Shown: positions 1,369-53,869, counted from the first letter of the stretch. The stretch: 54,892 nt of DNA from a virus (IMGVR_UViG_2568526312_000015); one strand, 5' to 3'. Program-made: numbers and translations. The notes: a model not told the origin generated them from the letters alone.

Positions 1369-1444
1369 GCCGATATAGCTCAGTTGGTAGAGCAGCGCAT
1401 TCGTAATGCGAAGGTCGTAGGTTCGACTCCTATTATCGGCACCA
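1369..1444 (+). tRNA. thrW: tRNA-Thr (anticodon CGU)
   Basis: 76-nt sequence GCCGATATAGCTCAGTTGGTAGAGCAGCGCATTCGTAATGCGAAGGTCGTAGGTTCGACTCCTATTATCGGCACCA; cloverleaf arms with anticodon CGT at positions 34-36 and a 3' CCA; lies directly downstream of proA. Confidence 0.93.
1399..1444. repeat. attL core: 46-bp 3' segment of thrW, repeated exactly at 40935..40980
   Basis: Exact 46-bp direct repeat ATTCGTAATGCGAAGGTCGTAGGTTCGACTCCTATTATCGGCACCA at both prophage ends. Confidence 0.85.
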
Positions 1445-1458
1445 TTAAAATCAATAAG

Positions 1459-2622
1459 TTACACATCATTAGTACCTTCCTTATTTTTTGACTGGGACAA
1501 ATTTGGGACCGATGGGTTCAGGATCGAGTCTATTTGCCGTGCGTGTTCGGTAAGGTGATTAGGTGCAAGGTGAGCATATCGACGAACCATTTCGATAGAC
1601 TCCCAGCCTCCCATTTCCTGTAACACTGACAACGGGACTCCGGCTTGAACCAGCCAACTTGCCCAGGTGTGTCTCAAGTCGTGAAATCTGAAATCATCAA
1701 TACCAGCCCGTCTCAGCGCCGCTTTCCAGGCTGTGTTTGCGTCATACCGCATCTTCCTTACTGTTGGCGCTTTCGTTCCGTCTGGTTTGGTACAGCTTTC
1801 CTTGTACACAAATACCCAACGGTGATGATTCCCGATTTGTTTTTTCAATACGCGACATGCAGTATCATTCAGCGCAACGCCAATTGCGCGGTTTGATTTA
1901 CTCTCTTCCGGGTTTATCCATGCCACCCGGCGCTGCATATCTATTTGTTGCCATTCAAGGTTGATGATGTTCGAGCGTCTTAAGCCTGTTGCCAGTGCAA
2001 ATTCAACAACAGACTTTAATGGCTCCGGACATTCATCAATCAGCCTTTGTGCTTCATGGGGCTCCAGCCAGCGGATCCGTTTATTCTTTGGTTGAGGCAC
2101 TTTAATAATTGGTGCCTTATCCAGCATTTTCCATTCACGCTCTGCGGCTCTTAGTAGGGCCTTTATAAATGAAAGATGCGTAGCCTTCGTTGCAACGGAC
2201 GCTGGTTTTGGCGTGTATTCTGGAACAGGTTTCCCTTTTTTTCTGCATGCTTCTGCCCTGAGTTTCCAGTTTTCCTCATGACGCCGGTTCGTCATTTTCT
2301 GCATTGCTGAATAAATTTTTGATTCAGTAATGTCTCTTAGTTGCATTCCTGCGAAATGTTGAAGCCAGAATCCGATCCGGCTTTTGTCATCGTCCAGCGA
2401 TTTTTTATGTGCTTTCTCTTCAAGCCACCTGACACACGCTTCCTCGAACGTTATATCAGGTATTTCACCAAGTTTGCTGACCCGCCATGCTTCAGCCTTT
2501 AGCTTGTCATGGAGTTCTGTCGCCTGCCTTTTGTCCTTTGTTCCAAGAGACTGTTTAAATCTTTTACCGTTCGGCAATGTGAAACTGGCGTACCATATTT
2601 CACCTCTGCGGAAGAGTGACAT
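1459..2622 (-). CDS. int: Tyrosine-type phage integrase (P22/SfV family, thrW-specific)
   Basis: 387-aa ORF recalled as highly similar to P22 Int along its length; C-terminal catalytic region with HxxR and the Y-containing motif (RHTWASW...VRRYAHL); ends 15 nt from the tRNA 3' end. Confidence 0.9.
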
Positions 2623-2849
2623 TTTCTTTCCTCTGTTATGCCATCACCCGCGCTCACCTGGACAGTATGCAGCGGAGACTGAAGAGCCGCAATGCAGGCT
2701 TGTCGTGTTGTGAGGTAAGGAGATTTATTCTTAGTGGGATCTTTGCGTGTTGCCTGAAGACGCCCTGTGCGTATCCAGTTAATGGCAGTCGGTCTGGATA
2801 TCTTGAGAAAATGACAGGCCTCATCGAGTGTGAGGCTGTATGGCTCCAT
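2499..2849 (-). CDS. xis: Excisionase (Xis), helix-turn-helix
   Basis: Internal ATG at 2849 ([31 protein letters not shown]) overlaps the upstream stop as TAATG; lies immediately upstream of int as in P22. Confidence 0.7.
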
Positions 2850-3154
2850 TATTTCACCTCTTGTTGTGACATTGTTGAAAAATGGATACCTGCTCGTTGC
2901 TGCCAGACGATCCAACCGAGAGTCATATCCCATGCCATGTATTCGTTATCGCCGTTTTTTGCTCTCCGACGATCTACTAAGTCACCGAAACGCTTTTCCA
3001 TGAATAATTCATAAGCTTCGCGTTCATCTGGTTCTACTTCCAGAGATAGGAGTGCGATTTCATAAGCACGGCGCTCAATATCGTCTCGCACGTCAAGGCT
3101 GCTGATACGCTCTTTAATTTCTTTAATCAGTTCTTTGTCGGTAAAAGTGGTCAT
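2849..3154 (-). CDS. Hypothetical early-left protein
   Basis: 101-aa ORF translationally coupled to xis (TAATG overlap). Confidence 0.45.
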   Translation of the reverse strand: MTTFTDKELIKEIKERISSLDVRDDIERRAYEIALLSLEVEPDEREAYELFMEKRFGDLVDRRRAKNGDNEYMAWDMTLGWIVWQQRAGIHFSTMSQQEVK

Positions 3155-3516
3155 TATGCTCCAGCCTCCGGTGCTTTTGGCATTACTGCCCAGTGAGTGA
3201 TATTGACGTTTTCAAGGTCCCCGACCTGAAATGTCCACTGCCATTCTCCGGTTTCTTTTTGTCCCCAGGTGTACCAGAGAGAACGCCAGCCAATTAGCCA
3301 GCCTTCTCCGTTAGCATCGAATAACAAAACACTTTCATTTGCTGGTGGCAGTTCAGTTGACACTGGTATTACTTTGTTTTCCTGTGCTGCACATTTAGCT
3401 TCAAGCGCATCGAATTTACGCACCAGGTATTCAGCATCTGTTTCATTCACTTTCAGATCTCGCGGTACACATCTCCCACGAAGAAACCCTTCCATTTCGA
3501 AAACATTCATGCGCAT
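3154..3516 (-). CDS. Hypothetical early-left protein
   Basis: 120-aa ORF in an operon with its neighbours (overlapping start/stop). Confidence 0.45.
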   Translation of the reverse strand: MRMNVFEMEGFLRGRCVPRDLKVNETDAEYLVRKFDALEAKCAAQENKVIPVSTELPPANESVLLFDANGEGWLIGWRSLWYTWGQKETGEWQWTFQVGDLENVNITHWAVMPKAPEAGA

Positions 3517-4070
3517 TTGCGTAACTCCGATAACTCGTTAAAACGTTCCATAAACATCCCGTAGGCATGGCCCGGTGCCTGTGGAATCACTTTGAACATC
3601 TCTGTTGCCGGGATACCTTCCAGTACAGGCCAGAAAGAGCCATCATCAAGCCCGAGATCGCGGCGTTCGGTTGCCAGCATAATGAGATCGGCATATTTCA
3701 CTGGCGTGCTCATAACAGGAGGTAACCCGTATTTCTCACGTATTACGGCGTCTATTTTTTCTTCCATCCGTTTATAGTCAGGAAGAAGTCGTTTCAGTGG
3801 TGCGGGGATGTCCTGGCAATATGCTTCTGTTGCATCATGCATTAAAGCTTCAAAAGCAAATTCCTGTGGCACCAGCTGGCTGCAAAGCACCGCATGTTGG
3901 GCGACACTGTAGAAGTGTGAAAGATGTCCTGCAAAGCGACAGATATTTGAAAGGGAAACCGCGATATCGTTAATAACGATGTCGTCTTTATTTATCCTGT
4001 CATAATAAAAATGCTTCCCGGAAAAAGTTTTAATAAATGACATTTTGTTCTCCACGTATATGCGCTGCAC
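3507..4070 (-). CDS. HD-domain phosphohydrolase (YfdR-like putative 5'-nucleotidase)
   Basis: 187-aa ORF with an H...HD...D metal-binding pattern (SVAQHAVL ... MHDATEAY ... D). Confidence 0.55.
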   Translation of the reverse strand: MQRIYVENKMSFIKTFSGKHFYYDRINKDDIVINDIAVSLSNICRFAGHLSHFYSVAQHAVLCSQLVPQEFAFEALMHDATEAYCQDIPAPLKRLLPDYKRMEEKIDAVIREKYGLPPVMSTPVKYADLIMLATERRDLGLDDGSFWPVLEGIPATEMFKVIPQAPGHAYGMFMERFNELSELRKCA

Positions 4071-4556
4071 CGCGCTGAATTCGGGTAAAAGGAAGCCCTC
4101 ACCGTCCGGCGATTATTGAGTCAATTACATTTCCATAAATGCCCCCGTAGGGGCGGTTAGTTTCTCCACAAAACAGAGAAGAACACCTGCGGTGGCAGCC
4201 GCCCGGATGGATTGGGTTATGAGCCCGTCGTCCGGTGATGCTCTTCTCTGTTTTGTAAAAAGGACGGTACCAGCCGGAAGCAAGGGTACAAGCTGGTACC
4301 GCTAAGACTACACACAGCATAAAGTTGTGGTGCCGGGTGCCTCCCGGTGCCTGGCGAAGGTTGCACACCAGGCGGGTGGGTATCCACAGAAGGTCGACTG
4401 TCAGCCTCAACCTTAACCCGCGTGCGCTGAGCCGCATTCACCACAACGCTAAGGATTCTCTCTGGTTGAAAATACTTAGCTGTTATGTGCCTGTCTTTTC
4501 ACCACTTCAGGCTCGGTGGTATCCTTTTAAGCCCGTATACATAAAAGGAAAATCAA

Positions 4557-4802
4557 ATGACTTTTGATGAAAAAGAACTTGATAATGCAATTAATAAAAT
4601 CATCGTAACGTCGCTCTTTTCCTGTCTCAGCGACACTCAGCAAAAACAGTTCTACGAATCGGCTTTCAACATGATCGAGCGTTGTTGTTTCTGCGATGCC
4701 GACGAGTTACCTGAAAAAATCAGGAAACAGTTGGCTGATGCTCTTCGAGTGCGACTTTCTGACCAATTTTCTGAAATGTACTCTCCGAATTTGGACAAAT
4801 AG
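4557..4802 (+). CDS. Hypothetical small protein
   Basis: 81-aa ORF, helical-looking; converges on and overlaps 4720..5016. Confidence 0.3.
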   Translation: MTFDEKELDNAINKIIVTSLFSCLSDTQQKQFYESAFNMIERCCFCDADELPEKIRKQLADALRVRLSDQFSEMYSPNLDK

Positions 4803-5016
4803 AAAAAGGCCATTTCCATTCAGGGTCTGATGGAAAGACTTCAGCCTGTTCTAAAGCACGGCGTAAAGAGAACACAACTCCAGCCATAATCTGATGTTTC
4901 CCATTGGTCCAGCTATCGCCGCTCTGATCTACAGGGGCGGCTATGTCGTATGACCAAACGACTTCACAGTTATTGTTTAAAATCTGGACTTTCATTTCAT
5001 ACACCTGCTTTAACAT
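4720..5016 (-). CDS. Hypothetical protein, first leftward gene after the putative OL/PL (N-like position)
   Basis: 98-aa ORF downstream of the cI terminator and the tandem operator-like 15-mers. Confidence 0.3.
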   Translation of the reverse strand: MLKQVYEMKVQILNNNCEVVWSYDIAAPVDQSGDSWTNGKHQIMAGVVFSLRRALEQAEVFPSDPEWKWPFSICPNSESTFQKIGQKVALEEHQPTVS

Positions 5017-5202
5017 GAGTGCCTAGTGGCACAACATGACTCAACGAATCATCCTGGACTTCATATGCCCCAGGCGGCTACTTCGTGGGCGTCCTGCCTG
5101 TTCGTTTTTGACATTTACTGACTGCTTACGACACATGCACCGTGTTGCAACCAGATTTTGTTGTAATCCTGTAGTTGGTCTGGAATAAAAGATAAAATTA
5201 AA

Positions 5203-5239
5203 TTGCGAGATATGCAAGTGGTATTTGCGAGATATGCAA
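5203..5239. promoter_or_regulatory. Two tandem 15-bp near-palindromes TTGCGAGATATGCAA (candidate OL operators)
   Basis: Identical 15-mers at 5203..5217 and 5225..5239, 22 bp apart; same TTGCG-N6-GCAA pattern as sites in the cI–cro intergenic region. Confidence 0.5.
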
Positions 5240-5252
5240 ATTTATAGGTAAT

Positions 5253-5273
5253 AAAAAGCCACCTTTCGGTGGC
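5253..5273 (-). terminator. Rho-independent terminator downstream of cI
   Basis: On the minus strand, GCCACC-GAAA-GGTGGC hairpin followed by a T run. Confidence 0.55.
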
Positions 5274-5293
5274 CGATGGATGGGATATTGAGG

Positions 5294-5986
5294 TTAATTA
5301 TGTCTCTTAAGGGTTTGCGACTGACTGATTAAGACCTTTCCAAAGACCATGAATCGGTGTTCGTTTTCGCTAGTAATTCCCCATTCACGGTAAATCTGGT
5401 TATCAGAAATCACCAGCAGTTTGTCAGGAATCATTTGAAGTCTTTTAACGTATATTTTGTCATCAAAACCAAAGACATATATACCATCACCATCAAACTG
5501 ATTGATGCTGACATCAACGAAGATGAGATCTCCTGGCTCAATGGTTGGACACATACTGTCCCCACGAACGTTGATAACTTTGATGTGATTGGCTGGTCGT
5601 CCGCCGAACATTGATACAGCATTATCAGTTCTGTATTCGATGGCATGAATCACATCAATGACATCACCGCCCTGGATAAGGCCATTTCCCGCACTGGCAC
5701 TGATATCCAGCATTTCAATACGGAACACATCCTTCACCTGCGCAACATCCTCATTATTACTGTTTTTATATACAGTATTACTTTTGTGGGCAGAGGTAAA
5801 GAGATCAGCAATATCAACACCTAAGCTCTTGGCAATATTACTCAGTGTTTGTTCGGTAAATTGTTTTTGCTTACCCGTTTCTAAGCGCGAGATGTTCGCC
5901 GCATCTACTCCTATCGCTTCAGCGAGATCGGCGATTTTCATGTTCTTCGCTTGGCGAAGTTGTCTGACTCGGTTTCCTATGTTCAT
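5294..5986 (-). CDS. cI: CI-type prophage repressor (HTH domain plus S24 LexA-like autopeptidase domain)
   Basis: 230-aa ORF; N-terminal XRE-type HTH, C-terminal GDSM...KR Ser/Lys dyad region; divergent from a cro-like gene. Confidence 0.85.
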   Translation of the reverse strand: MNIGNRVRQLRQAKNMKIADLAEAIGVDAANISRLETGKQKQFTEQTLSNIAKSLGVDIADLFTSAHKSNTVYKNSNNEDVAQVKDVFRIEMLDISASAGNGLIQGGDVIDVIHAIEYRTDNAVSMFGGRPANHIKVINVRGDSMCPTIEPGDLIFVDVSINQFDGDGIYVFGFDDKIYVKRLQMIPDKLLVISDNQIYREWGITSENEHRFMVFGKVLISQSQTLKRHN

Positions 5987-6006
5987 GCGTTTATTACATT
6001 TCTTTA

Positions 6007-6055
6007 TTGCGTGATAAGCAAATCAACTTGCGCAAAATAATTGCGTGAAATAACA
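6007..6055. promoter_or_regulatory. cI–cro intergenic operator/promoter region (three TTGCG-initiated sites)
   Basis: TTGCGTGATAAGCAA at 6007..6021 and further TTGCG sites at 6028 and 6041, between divergent cI and cro. Confidence 0.5.
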
Positions 6056-6083
6056 TGCATAACGCGCAATATTTGGAGGGCGT

Positions 6084-6344
6084 ATGCAATCACCATTACG
6101 AAATGTGCGTAAGGCGCATGGTTTCACTTTGCAGCATGTTGCTGCGGGTGTTCAAGTCAATCCAGCGACGTTGAGTCGTATTGAGAGGCTGGAGCAGATT
6201 CCATCTATCGAGCTTGCAGAACGTTTAGCCAATTTTTTTAAGGGTGAAGTCAGCGAAATGCAGATTCTTTATCCGGCACGTTTTCAATCTAGCCAAAACC
6301 AGAATGGGTTTAAACCACAGGAACAGGAGGTGAACCGTGGGTAA
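6084..6344 (+). CDS. cro: Cro-like HTH regulator
   Basis: 86-aa XRE-type HTH protein divergent from cI; RBS GGAGG upstream. Confidence 0.7.
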   Translation: MQSPLRNVRKAHGFTLQHVAAGVQVNPATLSRIERLEQIPSIELAERLANFFKGEVSEMQILYPARFQSSQNQNGFKPQEQEVNRG

Positions 6345-6888
6345 GCATCACTGGAAAGTAGAAAAACAGCCTGAGTGGTACGTGAAAGCTGTCAGAAAAA
6401 CTATCGCAGCGTTGCCGGGGGGGTACGCTGAAGCTGCTGACTGGCTGGATGTAACAGAGAACGCATTATTTAACCGCCTTCGTGCCGATGGCGATCAGAT
6501 TTTCCCGCTGGGATGGGCAATGATTTTGCAACGTGCTGGTGGAACTCACTTCATTGCTGACGCTGTGGCGCAGTCTGCAAATGGCGTCTTTGTGTCTCTT
6601 CCTGATGTCGAGGATGTGGACAACGCCGATATCAACCAACGCCTGCTGGAGGTCATTGAACAGATCGGCAGTTATTCAAAACAGATTCGTTCAGCAATTG
6701 AAGACGGTGTAGTGGAACCGCATGAGAAGACAGCAATTAACGACGAGCTGTACCTCTCAATTTCGAAGCTGCAGGAGCATGCAGCACTGGTCTACAAAAT
6801 TTTTTGCATTTCAGAAAGTAATGACGCCCGCGAGTGTGCAGCTCCGGGCGCCGTGGCGTGTCGTGACTGTGGAGAAACTAACGCATGA
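6337..6888 (+). CDS. Putative CII-like phage regulatory protein
   Basis: 183-aa ORF immediately after cro; assignment by position and recalled resemblance to the CP76-type CII family; not verified. Confidence 0.4.
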
Positions 6889-7223
6889 ACAGTTTAACAA
6901 CACACTACCGTCGCTCGCAACTGATTGCACTTCCTGTACCGGGTGGAAAAGCGAAGGTGGAGTATTGCTATGCAGTGAATGTACCAGGTGACAGGGAAAT
7001 TGTAACCCACAGCTTTGCAGAGTGGGCTGTGGGTGATTTCAACAGGCAAAAGGAGACAGTCCTTTGCGACAAGTTAACCGCTGGTTCAAAGATCACTACG
7101 GAGTGCCCGTCAGAGTCATTCGTTGGGAACCGGAAACACAACGGGTTATCTACCTCCGCGAAGGCTATGAGCATGAGTGCTTCAGCCCGCTCGAACAGTT
7201 TCGTCGTAAATTCAGGGAAATAG
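6885..7223 (+). CDS. Hypothetical protein (possibly frameshifted)
   Basis: 112-aa ORF with a low-complexity C-terminus; an alternative frame from about 7065 reads as a coherent peptide ending at the rep start. Confidence 0.3.
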
Positions 7224-7232
7224 AGGTCGGTC

Positions 7233-8174
7233 ATGAGCACTAAATTAACCGGCTATGTATGGGATGGTTGCGCTGCGTCAGGCATGAAGTTATCCAGCGT
7301 GGCAATTATGGCCCGCCTGGCTGATTTCAGTAATGACGAAGGTGTGTGCTGGCCATCAATTGAAACCATTGCCCGCCAGATTGGCGCGGGGATGAGCACC
7401 GTCAGAACGGCTATCGCACGGCTGGAAGCAGAAGGCTGGTTAACGCGTAAGGCGCGTCGCCAGGGTAACCGCAATGCGTCGAATGTTTATCAGCTTAACG
7501 TTGCGAAGCTTCAGGCAGCGGCATTTTCTCAACTGTCAGATTCTGACCCGTCAAAATCTGACGCATCAAAATCTGACCCGTCAAAATTTGATGCGTCGAA
7601 ATCTGGCAAAAAAGCGGGTTTTCACCCGTCAGAATCTGGCGGGGATCCGTCAGTAAAATCAAAACATGATCCGTCAGATAAAAAACCTTCTCGTCCGGAC
7701 GCTTCGCAACCGGACACGCAGACGGATGAACAGGATTTTTTAACTCGCCATCCTGATGCGGTTGTATTCAGCCCTAAAAAGCGCCAGTGGGGGACGCAGG
7801 ATGATTTGACCTGTGCACAGTGGCTCTGGAAAAAAATCATCGCCCTGTACGAGCATGCCGCCGAATGTGACGGCGAGGTGGTTCGTCCCAAAGAACCGAA
7901 CTGGACAGCCTGGGCAAACGAAATTCGCCTGATGTGTGTGCAGGATGGTCGTACTCATAAACAAATCTGCGAGATGTACAGCCGCGTCAGTCGCGATCCG
8001 TTCTGGTGCCGTAACGTGCTCAGCCCGTCGAAGCTGCGGGAAAAATGGGATGAGCTTTCCCTGCGCTTATCGCCGTCCGTCAGCACGTACACCGAAAAAC
8101 GCGAGGACCCGTACTTCAAAGCCAGTTACGACAACGTGGACTACAGCCAGATCCCGGCAGGATTCAGGGGGTGA
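7233..8174 (+). CDS. Replication initiation protein (O-like; N-terminal winged helix; origin iterons inside the gene)
   Basis: 313-aa ORF; repetitive DPSKSD/ASKSD linker encoded by DNA iterons; position after cro/cII. Confidence 0.6.
   Translation: MSTKLTGYVWDGCAASGMKLSSVAIMARLADFSNDEGVCWPSIETIARQIGAGMSTVRTAIARLEAEGWLTRKARRQGNRNASNVYQLNVAKLQAAAFSQLSDSDPSKSDASKSDPSKFDASKSGKKAGFHPSESGGDPSVKSKHDPSDKKPSRPDASQPDTQTDEQDFLTRHPDAVVFSPKKRQWGTQDDLTCAQWLWKKIIALYEHAAECDGEVVRPKEPNWTAWANEIRLMCVQDGRTHKQICEMYSRVSRDPFWCRNVLSPSKLREKWDELSLRLSPSVSTYTEKREDPYFKASYDNVDYSQIPAGFRG
7536..7690. repeat. Origin-like iteron array (five or more copies of about CGTCAAAATCTGA) followed by an A-rich tract
   Basis: Direct repeats seen in the sequence: CCGTCAAAATCTGAC, GCATCAAAATCTGAC, CCGTCAAAATTTGATG, GCGTCGAAATCTGGC, CCGTCAGAATCTGGC. 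Confidence 0.6.
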
Positions 8175-8665
8175 GCATGAGTCTTTTGAATGACGTTCAG
8201 AAATTCATTGAAGCCCATCCGGGCTGTACTTCCGGAGACATTGCGGATGCTTTTGCAGGTTACTCACGGCAGCGCGTTCTGCAGTCTGCAAGCAAGTTAC
8301 GTCAGAGTGGGCGTGTGGCTCACCGTTGTGAAGGGGATACACGCAGACATTTCCCGCGCCTGACTGAGAGAGCGCAGGAGCCGGAACCACAACCAGTTCG
8401 TGAAACCAGACCTGTGCGCAATTTCTATGTCGGCACTAACGATCCCCGGGTGATTTTGTGCCTGACCCGCCAGGCTGAAGAACTGGAGTCCAGGGGCTTA
8501 TACCGTCGTGCTGCAACGGTGTGGATGGCGGCATTCCGTGAAAGCCACTCCCAGCCAGAACGAAACAATTTTCTGGCGCGTTGTGAGCGGTGCTTACGGA
8601 AAAGCAGCAAGCGCGCTGTATCGGGTGAAGAGTGGTATCTGTCAGGGAATTACGTGGGGGCTTAA
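8171..8665 (+). CDS. Hypothetical protein with PerC-like C-terminal region
   Basis: 164-aa ORF; segment AEELESRGLYRRAATVWMAAF resembles the PerC-family signature; low certainty. Confidence 0.4.
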   Translation: MSMSLLNDVQKFIEAHPGCTSGDIADAFAGYSRQRVLQSASKLRQSGRVAHRCEGDTRRHFPRLTERAQEPEPQPVRETRPVRNFYVGTNDPRVILCLTRQAEELESRGLYRRAATVWMAAFRESHSQPERNNFLARCERCLRKSSKRAVSGEEWYLSGNYVGA

Positions 8666-9318
8666 TGAGTAATAAATATTGCCAGGCGCTGGTGGAGCTG
8701 CGGAACAAACCAGCCCATGAACTGAAGGAAGTGGGCGATCAGTGGCGCACGCCGGACAACATTTTCTGGGGAATTAACACCCTGTTTGGCCCGTTTGTTC
8801 TGGATCTGTTCACTGACGGTGATAACGCCAAATGTGCCGCTTATTACACTGCGGAAGACAACGCGCTGGCGCATGACTGGTCAGAACGTCTTGCGGAGCT
8901 TAAAGGTGCTGCCTTTGGTAATCCCCCATACAGCCGCGCCAGTCAGCATGAGGGGCAATACATCACCGGCATGCGTTACATCATGAAGCATGCCAGTGCC
9001 ATGCGTGATAAAGGCGGGCGCTATGTTTTCCTGATCAAAGCTGCCACCAGCGAAGTGTGGTGGCCGGAAGATGCAGATCATATTGCTTTTATTCGCGGGC
9101 GTATTGGTTTTGAACTGCCTGCCTGGTTTATCCCGAAGGATGAGAAGCAGGTGCCGACAGGCGCTTTCTTCGCTGGTGCTATTGCTGTTTTCGACAAGAC
9201 CTGGAAGGGACCGGCAATCAGCTACATCGGGCGCTATGAACTTGAGGCATGTGGTGAGGCCTTTCTGGCGCAGGTTCGCCAGCAGGCAGAAAAACTGGTC
9301 AGGGAGATGGCGGCATGA
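8665..9318 (+). CDS. Phage DNA N6-adenine methyltransferase (Dam-like orphan methylase)
   Basis: NPPY motif (FGNPPYS) and WRTPDNIF N-terminal motif; ATG overlaps the upstream stop (TAATG). Confidence 0.75.
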   Translation: MSNKYCQALVELRNKPAHELKEVGDQWRTPDNIFWGINTLFGPFVLDLFTDGDNAKCAAYYTAEDNALAHDWSERLAELKGAAFGNPPYSRASQHEGQYITGMRYIMKHASAMRDKGGRYVFLIKAATSEVWWPEDADHIAFIRGRIGFELPAWFIPKDEKQVPTGAFFAGAIAVFDKTWKGPAISYIGRYELEACGEAFLAQVRQQAEKLVREMAA

Positions 9319-9641
9319 CGACGTTAACTCAATGCCAGCAGCAGGTGCTGGATATGCTGATTTCTTATCAGAAAGAACGTGGCTTCCCGCCAACCAATCA
9401 GGAGGTGGCAACCATGCTGGGATACCGTTCAGTGAATGCAGCGGTGGAGCATCTTCGCGCACTGGAGAAAAAAGGCGTCATCACGATAAAGCGTGGCGTG
9501 GCCCGGGGGATAACGCTTCATATCGCGGTGAAGGACGACGACAGCGAGGCGGTCGGGATTATCCGCGCACTGCTTGCCGGTGAGGAAAACGCAAGGCTGC
9601 GTGCAACCCACTGGTTACATGAGAGGGACCTGAAAGTATGA
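9315..9641 (+). CDS. LexA N-terminal DNA-binding-domain-like protein (no peptidase domain)
   Basis: 108-aa ORF; first ~70 aa recalled as aligning with the LexA winged-HTH (QQVLDMLISYQKERGFPPTNQEVATMLGYRSVNAAVEHLRALEKKGVI). Confidence 0.55.
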   Translation: MTTLTQCQQQVLDMLISYQKERGFPPTNQEVATMLGYRSVNAAVEHLRALEKKGVITIKRGVARGITLHIAVKDDDSEAVGIIRALLAGEENARLRATHWLHERDLKV

Positions 9642-40180: not shown

Positions 40181-40221
40181 TCATTGTTCTTGCCCCCTTA
40201 TTTCCAGACAGGGGGTGTATC

Positions 40222-42324: not shown

Positions 42325-42327
42325 TTT

Positions 42328-44417: not shown

Positions 44418-45038
44418 AAAAATCAAATTGCAAATATTTATGAGGAATTGAAAGCGCAATTAATTTATCCTGAATATGATCAAGTCATTGTTTCAAGAGA
44501 ACTTGAGAAAGTAGAGCAAGATATTGAATCATCGAAAGATATATTGAAAGGTATTGTTGATGCACTTGATGATAAGAAGCAATTATTAAAAGAGTTAAGT
44601 GATGAATTATATTCAATCAGTGACAGGGAAAAATACTTATCATTACTCATTGAAAGATTTAGTCTTCTTAAAGACCAATACTTTATAGATCTACAAAGAA
44701 TAGATGTTGTATCACAGGCGAATTTCTATTTAAATAATTTTGCAGATATTTATTGTGAGTTCTGTAATACACCGCAAAAAAAAGAAAATGAAATATCATA
44801 TGATGATTGTTTTTTGTCGTGTAATGCAGAAAAATTGAAAATCAAAAGCCAGCTGAAAGGATTAATTGAATCAATCGGATCTAATGTTCGCGAACATGAA
44901 TTAATTATGTTAAGAAAAAATGATGTTAATGAAATTTATCAATCAGAAAAAAGTGATTTTAAGACGTTAGAAGATAAAAATATAAAACAATACATTCATC
45001 TCTTGAATCACTTTATGAATATAAAGACAATCTTTTAA
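44418..45038 (+). pseudogene. Coiled-coil middle segment of the same SMC/ABC-type ATPase (separated only by an in-frame TAA; no ATG start)
   Basis: Same frame as 43785..44417; reading frame open immediately after the TAA at 44415..44417; helical heptad-rich sequence. Confidence 0.5.
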
Positions 45039-45604: not shown

Positions 45605-46013
45605 TACATTAAAAATATAACTGCTAATTGGGGTGCTCGAAATTATATTTCGTTTCGAGCGCTCAGTTCATTTCTAAATAATTTGCAAAATTATTTTGGG
45701 TACTTTCGCCTCTACACTTCCTTCGGGTGGTTCCACAATAATGGATCTCACCGGCGTTTGATATTTTATAATCTAACCCCTTAGCGCGCGCAGCCCCCCA
45801 CGCCTGCTCGCTTCGCTTAACAGACTGGTTTTCATGCATTCCGCAAATCGTCTCAGAAGCCACCACACAAGGGCTTTCGCGTCAAAAATGGTGCATGAGA
45901 ATCATGCGTTTTCATGCGCTATAGACATGCACTCATGCGCTCTCAGGCCAGCCAGGGAAAAGGCGTAAAAAATCCCAGTACTGGACCGGGATTACGTGGG
46001 CTTTTTTTGCTAA

Positions 46014-46286
46014 TCAGACAGGAATTTGCTGACGGCTTGACAGCTTTGACGCGGAGCCATAGCGATTGAGAGTTTGCTGTTGTTTTTCCGGCATTTGTGC
46101 TTTCTCTGATTCCTGTTCATTGCGCCGGGGCTTCATGATTATCGTATCCACACTTTCCAGTGCGGTAAATGTGTAGGAACATTCAAGATTCTGGCACTGA
46201 TACCATGAGCGTTTAACCGATGGTGCTTCATAGGCGGAGGTTCTGGCGTGTGCCGTCGTACCGCATTCGGGACATTTAAGTGCCAT
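46014..46286 (-). CDS. Ogr/Delta-family zinc-finger late transcription activator
   Basis: CPECGTTAHARTS...YQCQNLECSYTF pattern matching the P2 Ogr / P4 Delta C4 zinc finger. Confidence 0.8.
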   Translation of the reverse strand: MALKCPECGTTAHARTSAYEAPSVKRSWYQCQNLECSYTFTALESVDTIIMKPRRNEQESEKAQMPEKQQQTLNRYGSASKLSSRQQIPV

Positions 46287-46291
46287 TAATA

Positions 46292-46843
46292 TTACTCCTG
46301 CATGCCGTTAATGTAATCCAGACGTTGCTGAAAGCGCAGTTGTTGTGCAGGGGTGTAAGAGCTCTGGCAATCACGAACCATCATGGGGTCAGGCATCACA
46401 CCGGATTCATCCAGAATCATACGATAATCCCCGGCAATTTCAGGCGGTGTTATTGCCAGCTGGCGAACCAGAGCATTGCGTAATATACGGGACGCAACGT
46501 CAACCCCTCCGCGCCCCTTCAGGAACGGAGCCAGTGCAGATGTCAGGGCTGCTCCATTCGCCTGCATAAAATTGCTGAGAGCGTCTTCTGTGCAGGCCTC
46601 CATCAGTTGATGCTGCGAGTAAATGCATTCGCGCGCAGCACAGTTAATTTGCCATTTCAGCACATCCAGATGTTCCCGCTGTAATTCGAGCTGTCGAGCA
46701 TAATCTGCTGGTTTTTCCATGGCAGTGAGGAGTGATTCTATCTGTTGTTCAACGGCTTTTCGGCTCTCACTATGTCCAGCCCACAGAATACGGGCATTTC
46801 TAAAACTGATAAGCGCTTGGTCTGGAGTGACTCGGGCCATCAT
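46292..46843 (-). CDS. P4-like late-operon protein (possible Psu/Delta-region analogue)
   Basis: 183-aa helical ORF co-oriented and contiguous with the Ogr-like gene; assignment by position only. Confidence 0.4.
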   Translation of the reverse strand: MMARVTPDQALISFRNARILWAGHSESRKAVEQQIESLLTAMEKPADYARQLELQREHLDVLKWQINCAARECIYSQHQLMEACTEDALSNFMQANGAALTSALAPFLKGRGGVDVASRILRNALVRQLAITPPEIAGDYRMILDESGVMPDPMMVRDCQSSYTPAQQLRFQQRLDYINGMQE

Positions 46844-47592
46844 ACTGCTTTCTCCTTCTCAGCACGTTCCTGACGAACCTTCATTTTATGCATAGCTGCT
46901 GGAGAGAGTTTATTACTGAAATCCAGACGGGCCGCATAATCCGGGGCAACTCCCGCCAGTTTAAACACGGGGTCCTGTTCGGGCATCGCATCGTTAGTCA
47001 GAGCCGGTCTGGTGATATGTTTATGAATAAAATCTTTCAGCAGTGTGTCCGGGTCATTAACTGAATGCACCACACCGACAACTGCGCTGGCTTCCCTGCC
47101 CATTGTTGATTTGAGCAGGCTTAGTGTCTGGATTAGTGCTTTTCCATGCGACTGCATAAAATCTTCCCAGATTTGTTTTGCGCGAATACCCACAAGGGTG
47201 TCGTGCGCGTGGATATACTTTCCGGCTAATTCCGCAGCCTCCTGCGGCAAAAGTGCATTTTCGCTTTCCTGAGCCGCCAGCAGCTCATCAAAATCCTCAA
47301 GCGTTTCTCGTCCCAGCGCAATTTCCGTGCGCAGTTTTTTCATTTCCTTTGAGACTACGCCCTGACTTTCACGAAATAGCGTGCGCCACTCCTCATTCAG
47401 GGCGTTCGTCGTGGCTTCCATTTCAGCGCGGCGCTGGCGGATTGTCGCAATATTATCCGCTGCCGCTTTTTGCTGACGACGTGCTTCAAGCCATGCAGAT
47501 TTGGTGGCATTCACTTTCTCAAGCGCCTGTTGCGTCGAAACAGGGATAGAAATTTCAACGATCGGGTTATTGTTCTGTTCTGGGATTGTCAT
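46840..47592 (-). CDS. P4-like late-operon protein (possible Sid/Psu-type capsid-associated analogue)
   Basis: 250-aa coiled-coil-rich ORF at the head of the leftward operon; assignment by position only. Confidence 0.4.
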   Translation of the reverse strand: MTIPEQNNNPIVEISIPVSTQQALEKVNATKSAWLEARRQQKAAADNIATIRQRRAEMEATTNALNEEWRTLFRESQGVVSKEMKKLRTEIALGRETLEDFDELLAAQESENALLPQEAAELAGKYIHAHDTLVGIRAKQIWEDFMQSHGKALIQTLSLLKSTMGREASAVVGVVHSVNDPDTLLKDFIHKHITRPALTNDAMPEQDPVFKLAGVAPDYAARLDFSNKLSPAAMHKMKVRQERAEKEKAV

Positions 47593-47756
47593 GTCAGCAC
47601 CTAGTGGTTTGTCGTGGTGTCAATTGTGCTGTGATGCATACAAAGCTGCCATTGAACGCCATTGTGCGAGCGACAAGACAAAGACTGAACCGCCCCGGAC
47701 CTCTTTTGGCTAGCCAGAAAAGGCCTCGTTTAACTAAGGCTGTTTCAGACTTACCT

Positions 47757-47975
47757 TAACTATTCACTACTATTCACTTAGGTAAAAAAAATAGGTAATA
47801 CAGAAGGTTATAAGGTGAAGGGTTGGCATGGCAGTATTCATCGACTGTTCATAACTGTTCACATGGGAATAAAATTATTTATGGTATTTTTTCATAATGG
47901 GTGGTTTTTTTATTCCTCGTAGCTATTTGTTTTTTGCTCCTCACCACTATTCACCCTTATTCAGGAGTATTCAAC
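47757..47975. repeat. Iteron-like repeats (CTATTCAC and variants) in the divergent promoter region
   Basis: TAACTATTCACTACTATTCACTTA at 47757..47780 and CACCACTATTCACCCTTATTCAGGAGTATTCAAC at 47942..47975. Confidence 0.4.
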
Positions 47976-48525
47976 AGGCACATAAATAGACTGCATGTTT
48001 TTGCCGGGGAATAACATTTTCGCCTCTGGCCATGGTGTTGCATTTCATACTGATTTTTATAAAACTAGATCTGTCCGGTTCTTTATGGATTCATTCGGAT
48101 ATATTTTACGATTTAAGGTGATGTTATTTAATATCAAGGTTTTTATGCAGGCCCAATGTTTATAAGTTGGATGCGATTCAAAAATATGCCCGGAAATTGG
48201 GGCCTGCAATGCAAGGCCTCGTGTAGAAGTTGTACTGCCTTGCTGTATTGGCGGTGGGGTTAGCACTATCAGGTGCAATGACCCATAGGATAGTAAACCC
48301 TGGGTGAATGGTAGTTCCTATTAATGCTCCTGTATTTATAGTCCGCAGGCATGGTATTTATTATGTCATTTTATATGGTTTAATCGGGCTTTAAATTCCA
48401 TAAAATCAATATGTGACGCTAAATAAAAAATGCGTGCGCAGGTGGTTTATATACACATAATAAGGAACTACCTGAACCCGGATAAATTCATCCGGACTGT
48501 TGTGGAAATTAAAGAGGGTAGATAA

Positions 48526-48786
48526 ATGCGTAATATTTCTGTGTCTGCGCCAGCTCCTGCTGCGCCATTATTTCCTGTATCGAACCATCATGAGCGATTT
48601 TTACGCCTGCCTGAGGTGATGCACTTATGCGGGTTGTCCCGTTCGACCGTTTACGACCTGATCAGCCGCGATGCGTTTCCGAAGCAGATCCCGCTTGGCG
48701 GTAAAAATGTCGCCTGGGCACAGTCTGAGGTCAGCGCATGGATGGCGGACCGCATCAGCGCCCGTGGGCGGGGATGTGATGCATGA
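48526..48786 (+). CDS. AlpA-family transcriptional regulator (prophage regulatory HTH)
   Basis: [47 protein letters not shown] matches the AlpA-family pattern. Confidence 0.75.
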
Positions 48787-49340
48787 TGATACCTGCATAC
48801 ATTAAATACCTTTATTCTGGCTTGCTTACTGTCGTCATTTCCAGGTATAGTTTTTCCGCTGTCGCAAAATCGGCAGCCGGAATTGGCGTTCCGTATAACT
48901 TATTGGCGACAATTGACGCCCCTTGCGTCTTTTTTTACGTCGTAGCTCAGGCACAACCATTTTCAGGGCTGTGGTGTTTATGCTTACACCATGGTTCTAT
49001 CGAGATAATGGTAGTCCGGGCGGGGCAGCCTTCGGGCTGGCCGGTTTCCAATAAGGCCGGTTACGCCAACCCCGTTCGGGCTGCCACCAGTGAAATTGGC
49101 GTTTCCGGTGGTAGCAATAACCGCTACTTATTGGAGGCTGCCATCATGGCTACAATCCTCACCCCGTCACACCCGCAATATGTCTTTGTGTTTGCCGCAA
49201 TCCGCCGTGCTGACACTCACCCCCGCATCTGTATGCTTCGCACTGTCTCCTGCGATGAGCGTTCCGCGCGCCGTTTGCTAGTCCGAGATTATGTACTCTC
49301 CCTTTCTGCACGGCTGCCTGCCGGGGAGGTGACGCTATGA
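48783..49340 (+). CDS. Hypothetical protein (the N-terminal two-thirds may be non-coding)
   Basis: 185-aa ORF of odd composition; only the C-terminal ~65 aa looks protein-like. Confidence 0.25.
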
Positions 49341-49558
49341 ACCAGTTTGAGATTTCCTACGACGATGTTGTAAGGCTGAAACATTTACGCAATGTGGGTG
49401 AGTATGTAACTGGCATGGCAGCCCTGCAGGACTGTTATGAAAAGCCAGCAGGTGCCCAATGCGAACAACTGGTTTCCCTCATTTATCTGATGACAGAGCA
49501 ACTGGATGGAGTGGTGCAACGCTGCCATGACGACCTGATGAATGCGGAGGTGGCCTGA
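49337..49558 (+). CDS. Hypothetical P4-like small protein
   Basis: 73-aa ORF in the operon upstream of the primase. Confidence 0.4.
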
Positions 49559-49881
49559 TGATATGCTGTGAATCTCTTCTGGCACTTCGTGCCGCTCTGT
49601 ATCGCCGTGCCGTTGCCTGTGCCTGGCTGGCTCTAAGCAATCATCAGGAACGTTATTCCGGCCTGACGCTCGCTGAACTTGAAGATGCCATAGCCCGCGA
49701 GCTGGAAGGGTTCTATCTGCGCCAGCATGGGCAGCAAAGAGGGCTGGAAATTGCCTGCGCGTTGCTTTCGGATCTGATGGAGTCGGGGCCGCTTAAAGCC
49801 TGTCCGGTTCTCTCACTGCTCGGAATGACGGTCATGGATGAACTTTGTTCCCGTCACCTCAACAAACCAGCGCTGCACTAA
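49558..49881 (+). CDS. Hypothetical P4-like protein
   Basis: 107-aa ORF immediately upstream of the primase. Confidence 0.4.
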
Positions 49882-49894
49882 GGAGGGCCGCACA

Positions 49895-52228
49895 ATGTCA
49901 GGAATGAAAGTTAGCCAGGCTGAGAAAGCAGCTCGGGGTCACTGGTCAAGAATTTTACCTGCGCTGGGCGTAAATGTACTGAAAAATCGGCACCAGCCCT
50001 GCCCGGTCTGTGCCGGGAAAGACCGCTTTCGATTTGATGACCAGGAAGGGCGGGGAACGTGGTTCTGTAACCAGTGCGGGGCAGGTGATGGCCTGGCGCT
50101 TGTAAGTAAAGTACTGGATGTAGGCATTAGTGAAGCGGCAGACAGAATAAACGGCATTATCGGAAACCTGCTGCCAGTATCTCAGGGAATGCTTGAATCT
50201 GGTTCTCCTGAAAAAGAGGACGGGAGAAAAGCTGCAGCAGTGCTGGCTGCCCGTTTGTTTGATAAGTCCCGCCAGACCACTGGCAATGCCTATCTGACGA
50301 GTAAAGGGTTTCCTGCACTGCCTTGCCGGGAATTAACCGCTATGCATAAAGTCGGTGGTGTGGCATTTCGCGCGGGAGATCTTGTCGTTCCATTGTATGC
50401 AGATGGAGAGCTGGTAAATCTGCAGTTAATCAACGCTAATGGGGGCAAATGCTTCCTTAAAGGCGGTCAGGTTAAGAATGCCTTTTACCTGGTTGAAGGT
50501 ACTGCCAAAGCAGCCAAACGGCTCTGGATAGCGGAAGGATATGCCACCGCACTTACTATCAACTATCTGACTGGCGATGCTGTCATGGTGGCCTTTTCGT
50601 CCGTCAATTTCCTTTCCCTGGCGAGCATTGCCTGCAGTGAGTACCCAACGCACCAGATAATTATTGCTGCTGACCGCGATCTCAACGGTGCGGGGCAAAC
50701 AAGGGGCGCAGCTGTTACCGGGGCCTGCAATTGCACAATGGCGCTCCCGCCTGTGTTTGGTGACTGGAACGATGCATTCACGCAAAACGGCGAAGAAGCC
50801 ACCCGGCATGCAATTCATGAAGTAATAAAACCAGCTGTTGCCAGCCCCTTCGACACAATGAGCGAAGCTGAATTTACCGCGCTGAGCGTCAGCGAAAAAG
50901 CGCAGAGGGTAGTGGATCACTATAAAAATTCACTGGCAGTAGACCCGAACGGGCAGCTCCTTTCACGCTATGAGGCGGGGGCCTGGAAAGTTATCTATTA
51001 CGCCGATTTTGCCCGTGATGTCGCTGCGCTGTTTCAGCGCCTCGACGCACCTTTTTCATCCGCGAAAATTGCGTCTCTCGTGGAAACCCTCAAACTGATC
51101 GTTCCGCAACAGCAGAATCCGGCGCGGCAACTTATCGGATTTCGCAACGGTGTGCTCGATACCCGGACAGGATTGTTCAGCCCGCACGATAAGAAGCACT
51201 GGTTACGTACGCTGTGCGAGGTGGATTACACGCAGCCCGTTGACGGTGAGTCACTGGAAACCCATGCCCCGGCATTCTGGCGCTGGCTGGATCGTGCCGC
51301 AGGTTTTAATCCTGAAAAACGGGACATTATTCTGGCTGCATTGTTTATGGTGCTGGCTAACCGTTATGACTGGCAGCTGTTTCTGGAGGTCACTGGCCCT
51401 GGCGGAAGTGGAAAGAGTATTCTTGCTGAAATAGCAACCATGCTGGCGGGTGAAGATAACGCGACCTCGGCAACCATTGAAATGCTTGAGTCGCCAAGAG
51501 AACGAGCTGCGTTAATAGGTTTTTCACTGATTCGACTTCCCGACCAGGAAAAGTGGAGCGGTGACGGGGCCGGACTAAAAGCCATCACTGGCGGCGATGC
51601 GGTATCCGTTGATCCCAAATATCAGAACGCCTATTCAACCCACATCCCGGCGGTCATCCTGGCTGTGAACAATAATCCGATGCGCTTCACTGATCGTAGT
51701 GGTGGAGTTTCACGCCGAAGGGTGATCCTGCATTTCCCCGACCAGATAGCCCCGGAGGAACGCGATACCCAGCTCAAAGAGAAAATTGCCAGTGAGCTAG
51801 CGGTGATTGTTCGCCAGCTTATGCAGCGTTTCAGCGACCCAATGAGTGCCAGGACATTGCTTCAGTCACAGCAGAACTCCGATGAAGCGCTCACCATCAA
51901 ACGTGATGCTGATTCAGCTTTTGATTTTTGCGGCTACCTTGAGGTCCTACCTGACACCACGGGCATGTTTATGGGGAACGCTAATATTGTTCCACGTCAG
52001 CCTCGAACTTACCTCTACCATGCCTATCTGGTCTACATGGAGGCTAACGGCTATAAAAATACGCTCAGTCTGACCATGTTTGGCAAGGGGCTACCGTTAA
52101 TGCTCAAGGAATATGGGCTGCAGTATGAGAAACGACGGACCAATCAAGGAATGCAGACTAATCTGGCCCTAAGAGAGGAAAGCAATGCTGACTGGTTGCC
52201 AAAATGCGATGAGTTTGCAGCGAAATAA
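49895..52228 (+). CDS. P4 alpha-type primase/helicase (zinc-binding primase, TOPRIM, P-loop NTPase)
   Basis: CPVCAGKDRFRFDDQEGRGTWFCNQCG zinc-binding motif; Walker A GPGGSGKS; AGGAGG RBS before the ATG. Confidence 0.85.
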   Translation: MSGMKVSQAEKAARGHWSRILPALGVNVLKNRHQPCPVCAGKDRFRFDDQEGRGTWFCNQCGAGDGLALVSKVLDVGISEAADRINGIIGNLLPVSQGMLESGSPEKEDGRKAAAVLAARLFDKSRQTTGNAYLTSKGFPALPCRELTAMHKVGGVAFRAGDLVVPLYADGELVNLQLINANGGKCFLKGGQVKNAFYLVEGTAKAAKRLWIAEGYATALTINYLTGDAVMVAFSSVNFLSLASIACSEYPTHQIIIAADRDLNGAGQTRGAAVTGACNCTMALPPVFGDWNDAFTQNGEEATRHAIHEVIKPAVASPFDTMSEAEFTALSVSEKAQRVVDHYKNSLAVDPNGQLLSRYEAGAWKVIYYADFARDVAALFQRLDAPFSSAKIASLVETLKLIVPQQQNPARQLIGFRNGVLDTRTGLFSPHDKKHWLRTLCEVDYTQPVDGESLETHAPAFWRWLDRAAGFNPEKRDIILAALFMVLANRYDWQLFLEVTGPGGSGKSILAEIATMLAGEDNATSATIEMLESPRERAALIGFSLIRLPDQEKWSGDGAGLKAITGGDAVSVDPKYQNAYSTHIPAVILAVNNNPMRFTDRSGGVSRRRVILHFPDQIAPEERDTQLKEKIASELAVIVRQLMQRFSDPMSARTLLQSQQNSDEALTIKRDADSAFDFCGYLEVLPDTTGMFMGNANIVPRQPRTYLYHAYLVYMEANGYKNTLSLTMFGKGLPLMLKEYGLQYEKRRTNQGMQTNLALREESNADWLPKCDEFAAK

Positions 52229-52360
52229 CTGACCTAAGACCGGCTGTGCCGGTCTTAAATCCGCTACAGGAAATTATCTCAAAATATATATCGATAAAAT
52301 TTAAAAGTTATATGCTAAGGCGTCAGCGGAAAATGCATCTAATTCATTGTTAGATGATGT

Positions 52361-53317
52361 TTATTTTTGAATTGATTTAAACATCCCATCGAGTTGTAAT
52401 TTATTTATGTCGGTTTTCTTTATGGCTTTAATTAAGTTTTCAATAACTTCCAAAGAAAAAATTACATCTTTCTTTTCAATTCTAACCCCCCCGTGGTGGC
52501 TGCAAGCATTAAGGATGTCCTTTGTAATTTCAACATCATTTTTCATTAATGGTTCATAGTCCAGAGCCTCAATAACAGAAACTAAACTACCTAGCATTTG
52601 CTCTTGGTATTGAACGTTGTTTAAATGCATTATACGAATATTAACAAGCATGAGAATATATTCTAAATATCTCCTGGCAGTATTTCCTTTCTCTTGTAAA
52701 GAATCACGATCATATTCCTCAATACTCATGACTTCATTATGTAAAGAGGCTATTTTGTGCTCTGCTAATGAAATATTTATCGCATCCATGAGGTTTCGTG
52801 AGAAGCCTGTAGATGTAACATGACCATTTGCGGGCCTTGTTAAAATACATGTAGTATAGCAATTTATATTTGGGGTCTGGATTGTCTCATTTACTCTTTT
52901 AACCGTTCTATAAACGTCTACCATATAAGAACCTGAGTTTTCAAATGAACATGAAGAGCATTTTGTATTATATATTCTATTTAGAGATAACTGATTGTGA
53001 TAGTATCCCTTTAAGAAAGCATATATAGTGTCATTAAACTCGACAAACACAACGGACTCAATATATATATGGAATTTATCATTGGGGTGCCACTCTAATT
53101 CAAGTCTTCTTGTAGAGTCATCAAAGGAAAAGTTTGAAATAAAATCCCAGTTACCTAAATCTATAAAATCAACGATATTTCTACCTGCACCATGGATATT
53201 TTTATTTATTAAAGTTGTGATTGAGTTTTTTATAATGTCCCAATCATGAATTTCATGATCGAATTTATTATTGATGGTTTCTTTTATTTGATTGGAAAAG
53301 TTTGAATAACTAGTCAC
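52361..53317 (-). CDS. Hypothetical protein (AT-rich orphan cargo gene)
   Basis: 318-aa ORF, very AT-rich, between the primase and the distal att remnant; no recognised motif. Confidence 0.5.
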   Translation of the reverse strand: MTSYSNFSNQIKETINNKFDHEIHDWDIIKNSITTLINKNIHGAGRNIVDFIDLGNWDFISNFSFDDSTRRLELEWHPNDKFHIYIESVVFVEFNDTIYAFLKGYYHNQLSLNRIYNTKCSSCSFENSGSYMVDVYRTVKRVNETIQTPNINCYTTCILTRPANGHVTSTGFSRNLMDAINISLAEHKIASLHNEVMSIEEYDRDSLQEKGNTARRYLEYILMLVNIRIMHLNNVQYQEQMLGSLVSVIEALDYEPLMKNDVEITKDILNACSHHGGVRIEKKDVIFSLEVIENLIKAIKKTDINKLQLDGMFKSIQK

Positions 53318-53847
53318 TTGTTAGCCTCAAAATTAATAATGAGTATTAAAATTTAATTGATATTGTCTATAAAATGTAGCGATGCAATTTTATTGCAACG
53401 AAATGATTTTTACAACATACCATTATCGCTAAACAAAATCGCACCCATCAAATCAACTTACGTTACAATCACTACAAAGCGATTGCATTTAAATTCAAAA
53501 CAGTTTTCTGTTGGGCGCATTTTTTGTTGTACTGGACTAAAGAGAAAAAATGGGGTAAGGAACAAATACCTTCCGTGCTCAAAAATTAGGTTTTTATGCA
53601 CTTATTAATCAGTCAAGGTGAACAGTAAAGTGTTCACTTCTTATCAATCGTTAATTTCATATCTTTTTGAATATTAATGAAAAAAAACACAATGAGTAGT
53701 ATGAACAGTTTTCCCCCAAAAAAAGTTTTTTCTGCCTTGAGAATGCGCGGAAAGCGAACGCCTTCACCAATGTGTATAGGGGTGTGTGTAGTTTAAATCT
53801 TCTATTTTAATTTATGTATTAAAATCATTGTGTTGGTGGCGATTATT

Positions 53848-53869
53848 GGTTCCTATTATCGCACCATTT
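53848..53869. repeat. Degenerate copy of the thrW 3' end (distal att of the P4-like island)
   Basis: GGTTCCTATTATCGCACCATTT against the tRNA 3' end GGTTCGACTCCTATTATCGGCACCA; downstream flank TAAATCAAGTAGTT resembles the flank after thrW (AAAATCAATAAGTT). Confidence 0.5.

Follow-up and report, generated by a model that had tools for sequence, protein, structure and literature searches.

Tandem occupancy of thrW by an SfV-like prophage and a P4-like satellite in Escherichia coli O157:H7

The stretch of viral DNA analyzed in the present study (IMGVR_UViG_2568526312_000015; 54,892 nucleotides in its entirety, hereafter the window) carries an intact threonine tRNA gene, thrW, followed by a 39.5-kb prophage and a 12.9-kb island, and this tandem very probably represents two unrelated integrative elements that serially occupied one attachment site. 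By gene content, the left element is an SfV-like temperate myovirus, and the right element a bona fide P4-like satellite. The window is the already described proA-thrW-yagP region of Escherichia coli O157:H7. An earlier sequence-only reading of the window had considered a satellite and a potential helper sharing one attachment locus to be notable; however, the tandem is already known, since RefSeq NC_002695 annotates Sp1 and Sp2 of strain Sakai, the Sp1/Sp2 tandem was discussed and experimentally studied by Asadulghani et al. (2009; PMC2669165), a "compound prophage" at thrW was noted by Greig et al. (2021; PMC8190617), and the identity of Sp2 across cattle strains including C1-057 was reported (PMC8046923). 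The locus is laid out as follows.

1-1254, plus strand: 3' part of proA, left chromosomal flank (RefSeq annotation of the 100% identical C1-057 locus)
1369-1444, plus strand: thrW, intact tRNA-Thr(CGT), bacterial attachment site (attB) of both elements (ARAGORN; Rfam tRNA, 71.8 bits)
1399-1445, plus strand: left attachment site (attL) of the SfV-like prophage, first copy of a 47-bp repeat (repeat search)
1446-40934, no strand assigned: SfV-like prophage (megablast to SfV, SfII, SfIV, and SfI)
40935-40981, plus strand: right attachment site (attR) of the SfV-like prophage, second copy of the 47-bp repeat (repeat search; Sakai feature boundaries)
40982-53850, no strand assigned: P4-like satellite prophage (identity to Sakai)
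53851-53866, plus strand: core of the satellite attR, TCCTATTATC-GCACCA (sequence search)
53993-54892, minus strand: yagP-type LysR regulator, right chromosomal flank (Pfam; annotation)

As the sequence-only reading had stated, thrW is intact; it is the single tRNA gene of the window according to ARAGORN, with which Rfam agrees, and its 3' 46 nt are at present provided by the left prophage. The direct repeat bounding this prophage was correctly described as exact, but it measures 47 bp rather than 46 (1399-1445 = 40935-40981, repeat finder) and spans tRNA position 31, in the anticodon stem/loop, to one base beyond the CCA. The attL of the satellite is the last 17 bp of the tRNA end within the second 47-bp copy (40964-40980), and the P4-type integrase that had been recognized beside this copy is an open reading frame (ORF; 41092-42324) beginning 111 bp after the repeat; the sizes previously given for the two elements also stand. 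The third copy corresponds to the 3'-terminal 17 nt of the tRNA minus one G. A fuzzy search with the 17-bp core, in which up to 2 errors were allowed, returned only three sites in the window, and ARAGORN found no 5' tRNA half beside copy 2 or 3.

The DNA to the right of the third repeat is identical to the native thrW downstream flank of unoccupied sites. Using a query in which 500 bp ending at the thrW 3' end were joined to the 500 bp after repeat 3, we found thrW and the right flank to be contiguous in 948 of the 5426 complete E. coli genomes in our census database; in strain 88-3493, thrW is directly followed by TTTAAATCAAGTAGTTACCCCATATTTAAATACACC, the exact sequence found on the right side of repeat 3, and in K-12 the same chromosomal flank follows the attR of the cryptic prophage CP4-6. 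The entire 52.4 kb lying between thrW and this flank is therefore inserted DNA. The states of thrW across the census were as follows.

948/5426 genomes: empty
120/5426 genomes: thrW joined directly to this satellite integrase type
24/5426 genomes: SfV-type right end abutting the yagP flank
281/5426 genomes: tandem junction

Because each element was found alone in this census, each integrates at thrW independently, and their adjacency is explained by both integrases using one attB, which would be rebuilt at every integration. The earlier proposal of two separate integrative elements in tandem is thus borne out by related genomes in which the locus is empty or holds one of them. An alternative reading of the region as one composite island, or as core DNA between duplicated tRNA genes, draws on the shared repeat only and has a negligible probability in view of the contiguous empty site, the solitary occurrence of each element, the presence of one tRNA gene with no 5' halves at copies 2 and 3, and the location of a separate integrase beside the att copy of each element.

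Comparisons within the O55:H7/O157:H7 group indicate that the satellite is constant and the thrW-proximal slot variable, holding three different prophages or being empty. The satellite stands alone at thrW in O55:H7 DEC5A and in sorbitol-fermenting (SF) O157 493/89, with junctions 99.7-99.9% identical to those of the window, while in O55:H7 CB9615 a ~49-kb lambda-like prophage is followed by the same satellite (L014 17545-50000, L015 1-16700). In Sakai, Sp1 and Sp2 occupy the same chromosomal site in the same order as the elements of the window. Positions 40935-54892 are 100% identical to Sakai, in which this DNA is annotated "prophage Sp2, P4-like phage", whereas the proximal slot of the window holds a nearly complete 39.5-kb prophage and that of Sakai a 10.6-kb remnant, Sp1, which is 99.5% identical to the left element at the thrW/int end and 97.0% identical over the last 4.9 kb. 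A derivation of Sp1 from the window prophage by deletion was considered and rejected because its cI/cro/cII/O/P region (L001 3394-8136) has no DNA similarity to the window. Since the early region of Sp1 is unrelated and its right end is 97% identical, the proximal slot was filled, or altered by recombination, on more than one occasion in O157:H7.

The lambda-like prophage of CB9615 bears effector genes of the type III secretion system (T3SS), namely nleG, espW, espM2, and the nleB family. In strain 64EVA, the satellite attR is followed by another island with YfjI and DUF3987 genes (L011 31133-37002), the left end of which resembles the flank of an SfV-type attL, and this locus would be another tandem array at thrW. 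CP4-6 also uses thrW as attB, and its attR is a full 49-bp copy of the thrW 3' end; however, its gene content is unrelated to that of the window, and its integrase, intF, lies at the yagP end.

In the history that we propose, both integrases recombine in the 3' part of thrW, and since a copy of the tRNA end would arrive with each element, an intact thrW would be rebuilt at every integration and the earlier occupant displaced outward. Lambdoid-type and P4-type integrases that target tRNA genes usually cross over in the anticodon loop and T-loop, respectively. The anticodon stem/loop is where the 47-bp block begins, and the 17-bp block starts where the T-loop ends; the SfV-type integrase may cross over at the anticodon loop to leave a 47-bp repeat, and the P4-type integrase at the T-loop/acceptor end to leave a 17-bp core. 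Repeat length fits a reflection of the crossover site, not of the age of the insertion. The attR of the related satellite in 64EVA contains the 17-bp core without a mismatch, and for this reason the short repeat is regarded as intrinsic to the satellite, with the single missing G as its only decay; the interpretation of copy 3 as a decayed 46-bp repeat was rejected on the same ground. The sequence-only reading was correct in finding a third, degenerate copy of the tRNA end, but not in presenting it as a worn-down long repeat. The missing G is shared with O55:H7 DEC5A (L010 29354-29370 and L011 31133-31151 compared), and the deletion is old because it is already present in that strain.

On the comparative strain pattern, the satellite is likely to have been the earlier resident of the O55:H7/O157:H7 lineage, and the SfV-like phage would have entered the rebuilt thrW later. 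The same order had been proposed from the contrast between exact and decayed repeats; while the order is probably right, as judged from strain distribution, that argument is unsound. Some points weigh against the history as set out here. Either order produces the same end structure, and repeats alone cannot settle the question for that reason, which leaves the order resting on strain distribution; strains with the satellite only could also arise by precise excision of the proximal phage; and the positions of crossover were deduced from the repeat limits and from the usual behavior of tRNA-targeting integrases. The reverse order, with the SfV-like phage as first occupant and the tRNA fragment within its attR later serving the satellite as attB, is consistent with the identical end product. 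Moreover, crossover at the T-loop/3' end requires the 3' part of the tRNA only, which the 47-bp attR supplies, and an attR of a resident prophage serving as attB has been documented for Sp10 beside Rac (PMC2669165). Nevertheless, we consider this order unlikely because loci with the satellite only exist in DEC5A and SF O157 493/89 with the nearly identical junctions described above, because DEC5A, Sakai, and the window carry one and the same satellite, with the one-base attR deletion, while the proximal element differs by strain, and because the proximal elements of Sakai and the window are 97% identical where alignable as opposed to 100% for Sp2.

The assignment of the right element to the P4-like satellites is based on the following features.

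41092-42324, plus strand: P4-type tyrosine integrase, start per RefSeq at 41143 (Arm-DNA-bind_3, Phage_int_M, and Phage_integrase; 38% identical to P4 Int)
42328-45604, plus strand: fragmented Lamassu/ABC-3C system, hotspot cargo (PADLOC; Pfam CTD6, MC2)
45784-45804, minus strand: sequence GGCGTGGGGGGCTGCGCGCGC, resembling a cohesive-end site (cos) (sequence; alignment with P4 and P2 cos regions)
46014-46286, minus strand: Ogr/delta-type zinc-finger activator, 90 aa (Pfam Ogr_Delta, 1e-16)
46292-46843, minus strand: psu (Pfam Psu, 4.8e-42)
46840-47592, minus strand: sid (PHROG 6165, 5.3e-96; Pfam Psu, 7.1e-10)
47756-47862, minus strand: stretch like the type-1 repeat region of the P4 origin of replication (ori) (blastn to P4 9311-9418, 71.6%; P4 feature table)
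48526-52228, plus strand: early operon (Pfam; Rfam; tblastn)
48526-48786, plus strand: AlpA/Vis (Phage_AlpA, 1.2e-19)
48783-49340, plus strand: Ash/Icd-like ORF (Phage_ASH, 4.8e-30)
48858-48935, plus strand: isrK RNA (Rfam, 71.9 bits)
49004-49091, plus strand: C4/CI-type immunity antisense RNA, inside the Ash/Icd-like ORF (Rfam C4, 84 bits; gathering threshold, 45)
49558-49881, plus strand: DUF5375 (Pfam)
ending at 52228, plus strand: alpha primase-helicase (Zn-ribbon, Toprim, and D5 domains; Pfam)
52361-53317, minus strand: 318-aa ORF between alpha and attR, in AT-rich DNA (GC 0.32-0.36)

Running from int through the hotspot and the cos region to psu/sid/activator, the immunity RNA, and alpha, the gene order of the satellite is that of P4, and tblastn identities to P4 proteins are 72.6% for alpha (over 771 aa), 68% for ORF106, 66% for Vis, 38% for Int, and 31% for Psu. 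The ORF with the Phage_ASH domain (48783-49340) aligns with the ORF of the P4 cI region, and the early operon also includes a 73-aa ORF. Differences from P4 are found in the integration site, which is thrW in the window and leuX in P4, in the late operon (46014-47592, minus strand), which is transcribed in the order sid, psu, and Ogr/delta-type activator, in a diverged cos-like site, and in the extra 318-aa ORF, which occupies a position without a gene in P4 and was unmatched in Pfam, PADLOC, PHROGs, NCBIfam, and PDB sequences. The activator is a single-domain protein that is 49% identical to P2 Ogr and weakly similar to the 166-aa delta of P4. A tblastn search of the satellite detected no match to P4 epsilon, ORF151, or gop/beta/cII; an epsilon homologue was placed in Sp13, not Sp2, by Asadulghani et al. 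(2009; PMC2669165).

Regarding the cargo, the Lamassu pieces comprise LmuA in 2 ORFs, a whole LmuC, and LmuB in 3 ORFs, and the ATPase gene is annotated as a pseudogene in Sakai. The system of DEC5A is broken elsewhere, with an internal stop in LmuC and LmuB in 2 pieces, and in the related thrW satellite of 64EVA the int-psu hotspot is occupied by a helicase and an ATP-dependent nuclease. Variable defense cargo between int and psu is a known P4 hotspot (Rousset et al. 2022, PMC9122126; Moura de Sousa and Rocha 2021, PMC8628076).

The left element is nearly complete and is a full-length occupant of the "Sp1" slot, with the features listed below.

1459-2622, minus strand: integrase, 98.5% identical to SfV Int, 3' end adjoining thrW (tblastn; annotation)
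2499-2933, minus strand: Xis homologue, 97.3% identical to SfV (tblastn; annotation)
5294-5986, minus strand: CI-type repressor (PHROG, CI-like and, more weakly, UmuD-like families; annotation)
6084-6344, plus strand: cro-like gene (annotation)
7233-8174, plus strand: O-like replication initiator (PHROG 391, E 4e-135)
11867-12619, plus strand: Q-type antiterminator (annotation; homologous to the SfV Q region)
16714-18020, minus strand: insertion sequence (IS) IS1203/IS629 inside the HNH endonuclease gene (annotation; ALIL pseudoknot, 121.5 bits; break in the SfV alignment)
18372-34971, plus strand: packaging, head, and tail genes (annotation; tblastn to SfV)
34975-37778, no strand assigned: tail-fiber genes with an invertible segment (annotation)
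37224-37778: Pin invertase (annotation)
37839-38612, minus strand: PD-T4-3 defense gene (PADLOC, E 2.7e-140)
39437-40180, plus strand: AraC-family regulator (annotation)
40222-40656, minus strand: IS3-family remnant (annotation)

The early region of the prophage is lambdoid, its head is of the HK97 type, and its tail is contractile and Mu-type. It resides at thrW next to proA, as do the serotype-converting phages SfV, SfII, SfIV, and SfI of Shigella flexneri, which it matches along with related E. coli phages; it shares the genome layout of SfV, and the 16,974 bp from cos to the baseplate genes are 97.6% identical. An att identity block of about 46 bp in thrW is expected of this phage group, and the exact repeat of the window is 47 bp long. 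SfV 36791-37074 aligns to 18021-18304 and SfV 1-16974 aligns collinearly to 18305-35278, and because the ends of the SfV genome fall there, the predicted cos of the prophage was placed at 18304/18305, between the HNH and terS genes. The packaging, head, and tail region (18372-34971) holds the small (TerS, P27 family) and large (TerL) terminase subunits, portal, protease, HK97-type major capsid protein, sheath, tube, tape measure, and baseplate genes, and the major capsid protein and TerL are 99.3% and 98.0% identical to those of SfV (tblastn).

In contrast to SfV, the prophage has a Pin-invertible tail-fiber module, a mosaic early region (CI-like repressor, O-like initiator, and Q antiterminator), IS1203 in the HNH gene, and no gtr cassette. 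SfV 16975-20591, which contains gtrA/gtrB/gtr(type), gave no match by megablast, and the place of gtrABV is taken by the cargo block 37839-40656, with the full-length GIY-YIG-type PD-T4-3 gene exactly at the gtr position. Since the gtr cassette is absent, the prophage has an SfV-like backbone without being a serotype-converting phage. The O-like gene contains, at 7521-7643, six tandem 15-bp iterons (TCAAAATCTGACCCG-like; repeat search), and this cluster is the presumed ori, lambdoid in appearance. Annotation and profile matches suggest that the late genes are under the control of Q and not of an Ogr/delta protein.

The AraC/XylS-family regulator, which is YdeO/GadX-like by NCBIfam, below the cut-off, is also present in Sakai Sp1; it is tentatively taken to be PatE (z0321, O-island 8), an activator of acid resistance, which is its probable identity. 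Downstream of the lysis cassette is a gene for a Bor/Iss-like outer-membrane lipoprotein (15764-16057, minus strand). In 66 complete genomes, such as that of C1-057, coverage reaches at least 80% over the first 25 kb of the window, which comprise the flank and the left part of the prophage. All 193 differences from C1-057, many of them small indels, are confined to 34635-36924, the Pin-invertible tail-fiber segment, the genes of which are marked as frameshifted in the C1-057 record; this suggests a mixed-orientation assembly artefact in one record.

In HK97-type packaging, the HNH protein is needed for the cleavage of cos. The HNH gene of the left prophage, a homologue of SfV orf53, is split by IS1203 into fragments at 16583-16713 and 18021-18246, and because of this split the prophage copy has probably lost cos cleavage and packaging. 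Both elements look impaired, the prophage through this insertion and the satellite through its attR core lacking one base and its fragmented Lamassu system, and mobility may have been lost accordingly in each. In Sakai, neither Sp1 nor Sp2 was found to circularize, replicate, or be packaged (PMC2669165), and the one-base attR deletion may contribute to the reported lack of Sp2 circularization/excision.

The left prophage had been described as a helper-type element, and a helper-type partnership with the satellite is not supported by the present comparisons. No homologue of P2 Q, P, O, N, M, or FI (portal, terminase, scaffold, capsid, and sheath) was detected in the window by tblastn at 1e-5; the P2-type capsid, scaffold, portal, and terminase (N, O, Q, P, and M) are what the capsid-binding, Psu-fold proteins Sid and Psu act on. 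The two elements have no DNA (blastn, E 0.01) or protein (blastp, E 1e-3) in common, and the prophage cos region (18230-18380) gave only chance-level matches in Sp2. Sp2 has no small terminase/Rpp or capsid-redirection genes of the phage-inducible chromosomal island (PICI) type and no helper cos, with Pfam and PHROG scans returning P4-type functions only. Furthermore, annotation and profile matches identify the repressor of the left element as CI-type and not as a P2 C-type repressor.

The P4 gene set and the P2/P4-type cos-like region rather suggest that the satellite would depend on a P2-like helper and not on its neighbor. Lying between the hotspot and the genes on the psu side, the cos-like site is placed and oriented like P4 cos and is flanked by blocks common to the P2 and P4 cos regions. 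Several results nevertheless weigh against this reading: the P2/P4 cohesive-end 19-mer has 0 matches in the window when up to 3 mismatches are allowed; no match to 45640-46013, the putative Sp2 cos region, exists among 50,697 phage records (INPHARED set, distant mode); and the exact Sp2 cos-like 19-mer occurs at 4 loci in IMG/VR, all of which are copies of Sp2 and none a helper. The search for P2 homologues covered the 54.9-kb window. With the P4 cos region as query, BLAST of the window likewise yielded chance-level matches only. The cos of phage 186 is similar to that of P2. P2 is regarded as the helper type, and the sole P2-like prophage of Sakai, Sp13, lacks morphogenesis genes (PMC2669165).

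It is very unlikely that the satellite is helped by the SfV-like prophage beside it and that the shared att site reflects a functional pairing. The two are physically adjacent in 281 genomes, the prophage has a contractile tail and an HK97-fold capsid, and the satellite is atypical for P4 in its Ogr-like activator, in an epsilon that was not detected here or in PMC2669165, and in a cos-like site unlike the P2/P4 19-mer. However, related strains carry the same satellite with no neighbor, next to a lambda-like phage, or next to a 10.6-kb remnant, and the SfV-type element occurs without it in 24 genomes. The window has none of the above P2 homologues, the elements lack common DNA and protein, the prophage cos region has no counterpart in Sp2, the Q antiterminator and CI-type repressor of the prophage are not targets of Ogr/delta or epsilon, and the HNH gene in its packaging module is broken by IS1203. 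Because an Ogr-like activator replaces delta, epsilon is unrecognizable, and the cos-like site is unlike that of P2/P4, the mobilization of Sp2-type satellites by phages other than classical P2-like ones, such as contractile-tailed SfV-like phages sharing thrW, is conceivable, but we regard it as a slim chance; if true, P4-type piracy would extend to helpers with an HK97-type head and a Mu-type tail.

Taken together with serial occupancy as the preferred reading, a prophage and a satellite are expected to be neighbors at a tRNA gene whenever their integrases share attB, and such adjacency is not evidence of helper pairing; similarly, the length of a repeat at a tRNA site indicates the place of crossover and not the age of the insertion. 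The locus exemplifies turnover of a slot, in which a fixed and probably immobilized satellite stays in place and the tRNA-proximal position is refilled by different phages, so that the cargo carried by the proximal phage varies among a defense gene, a regulator of the acid-resistance type, and T3SS effectors.

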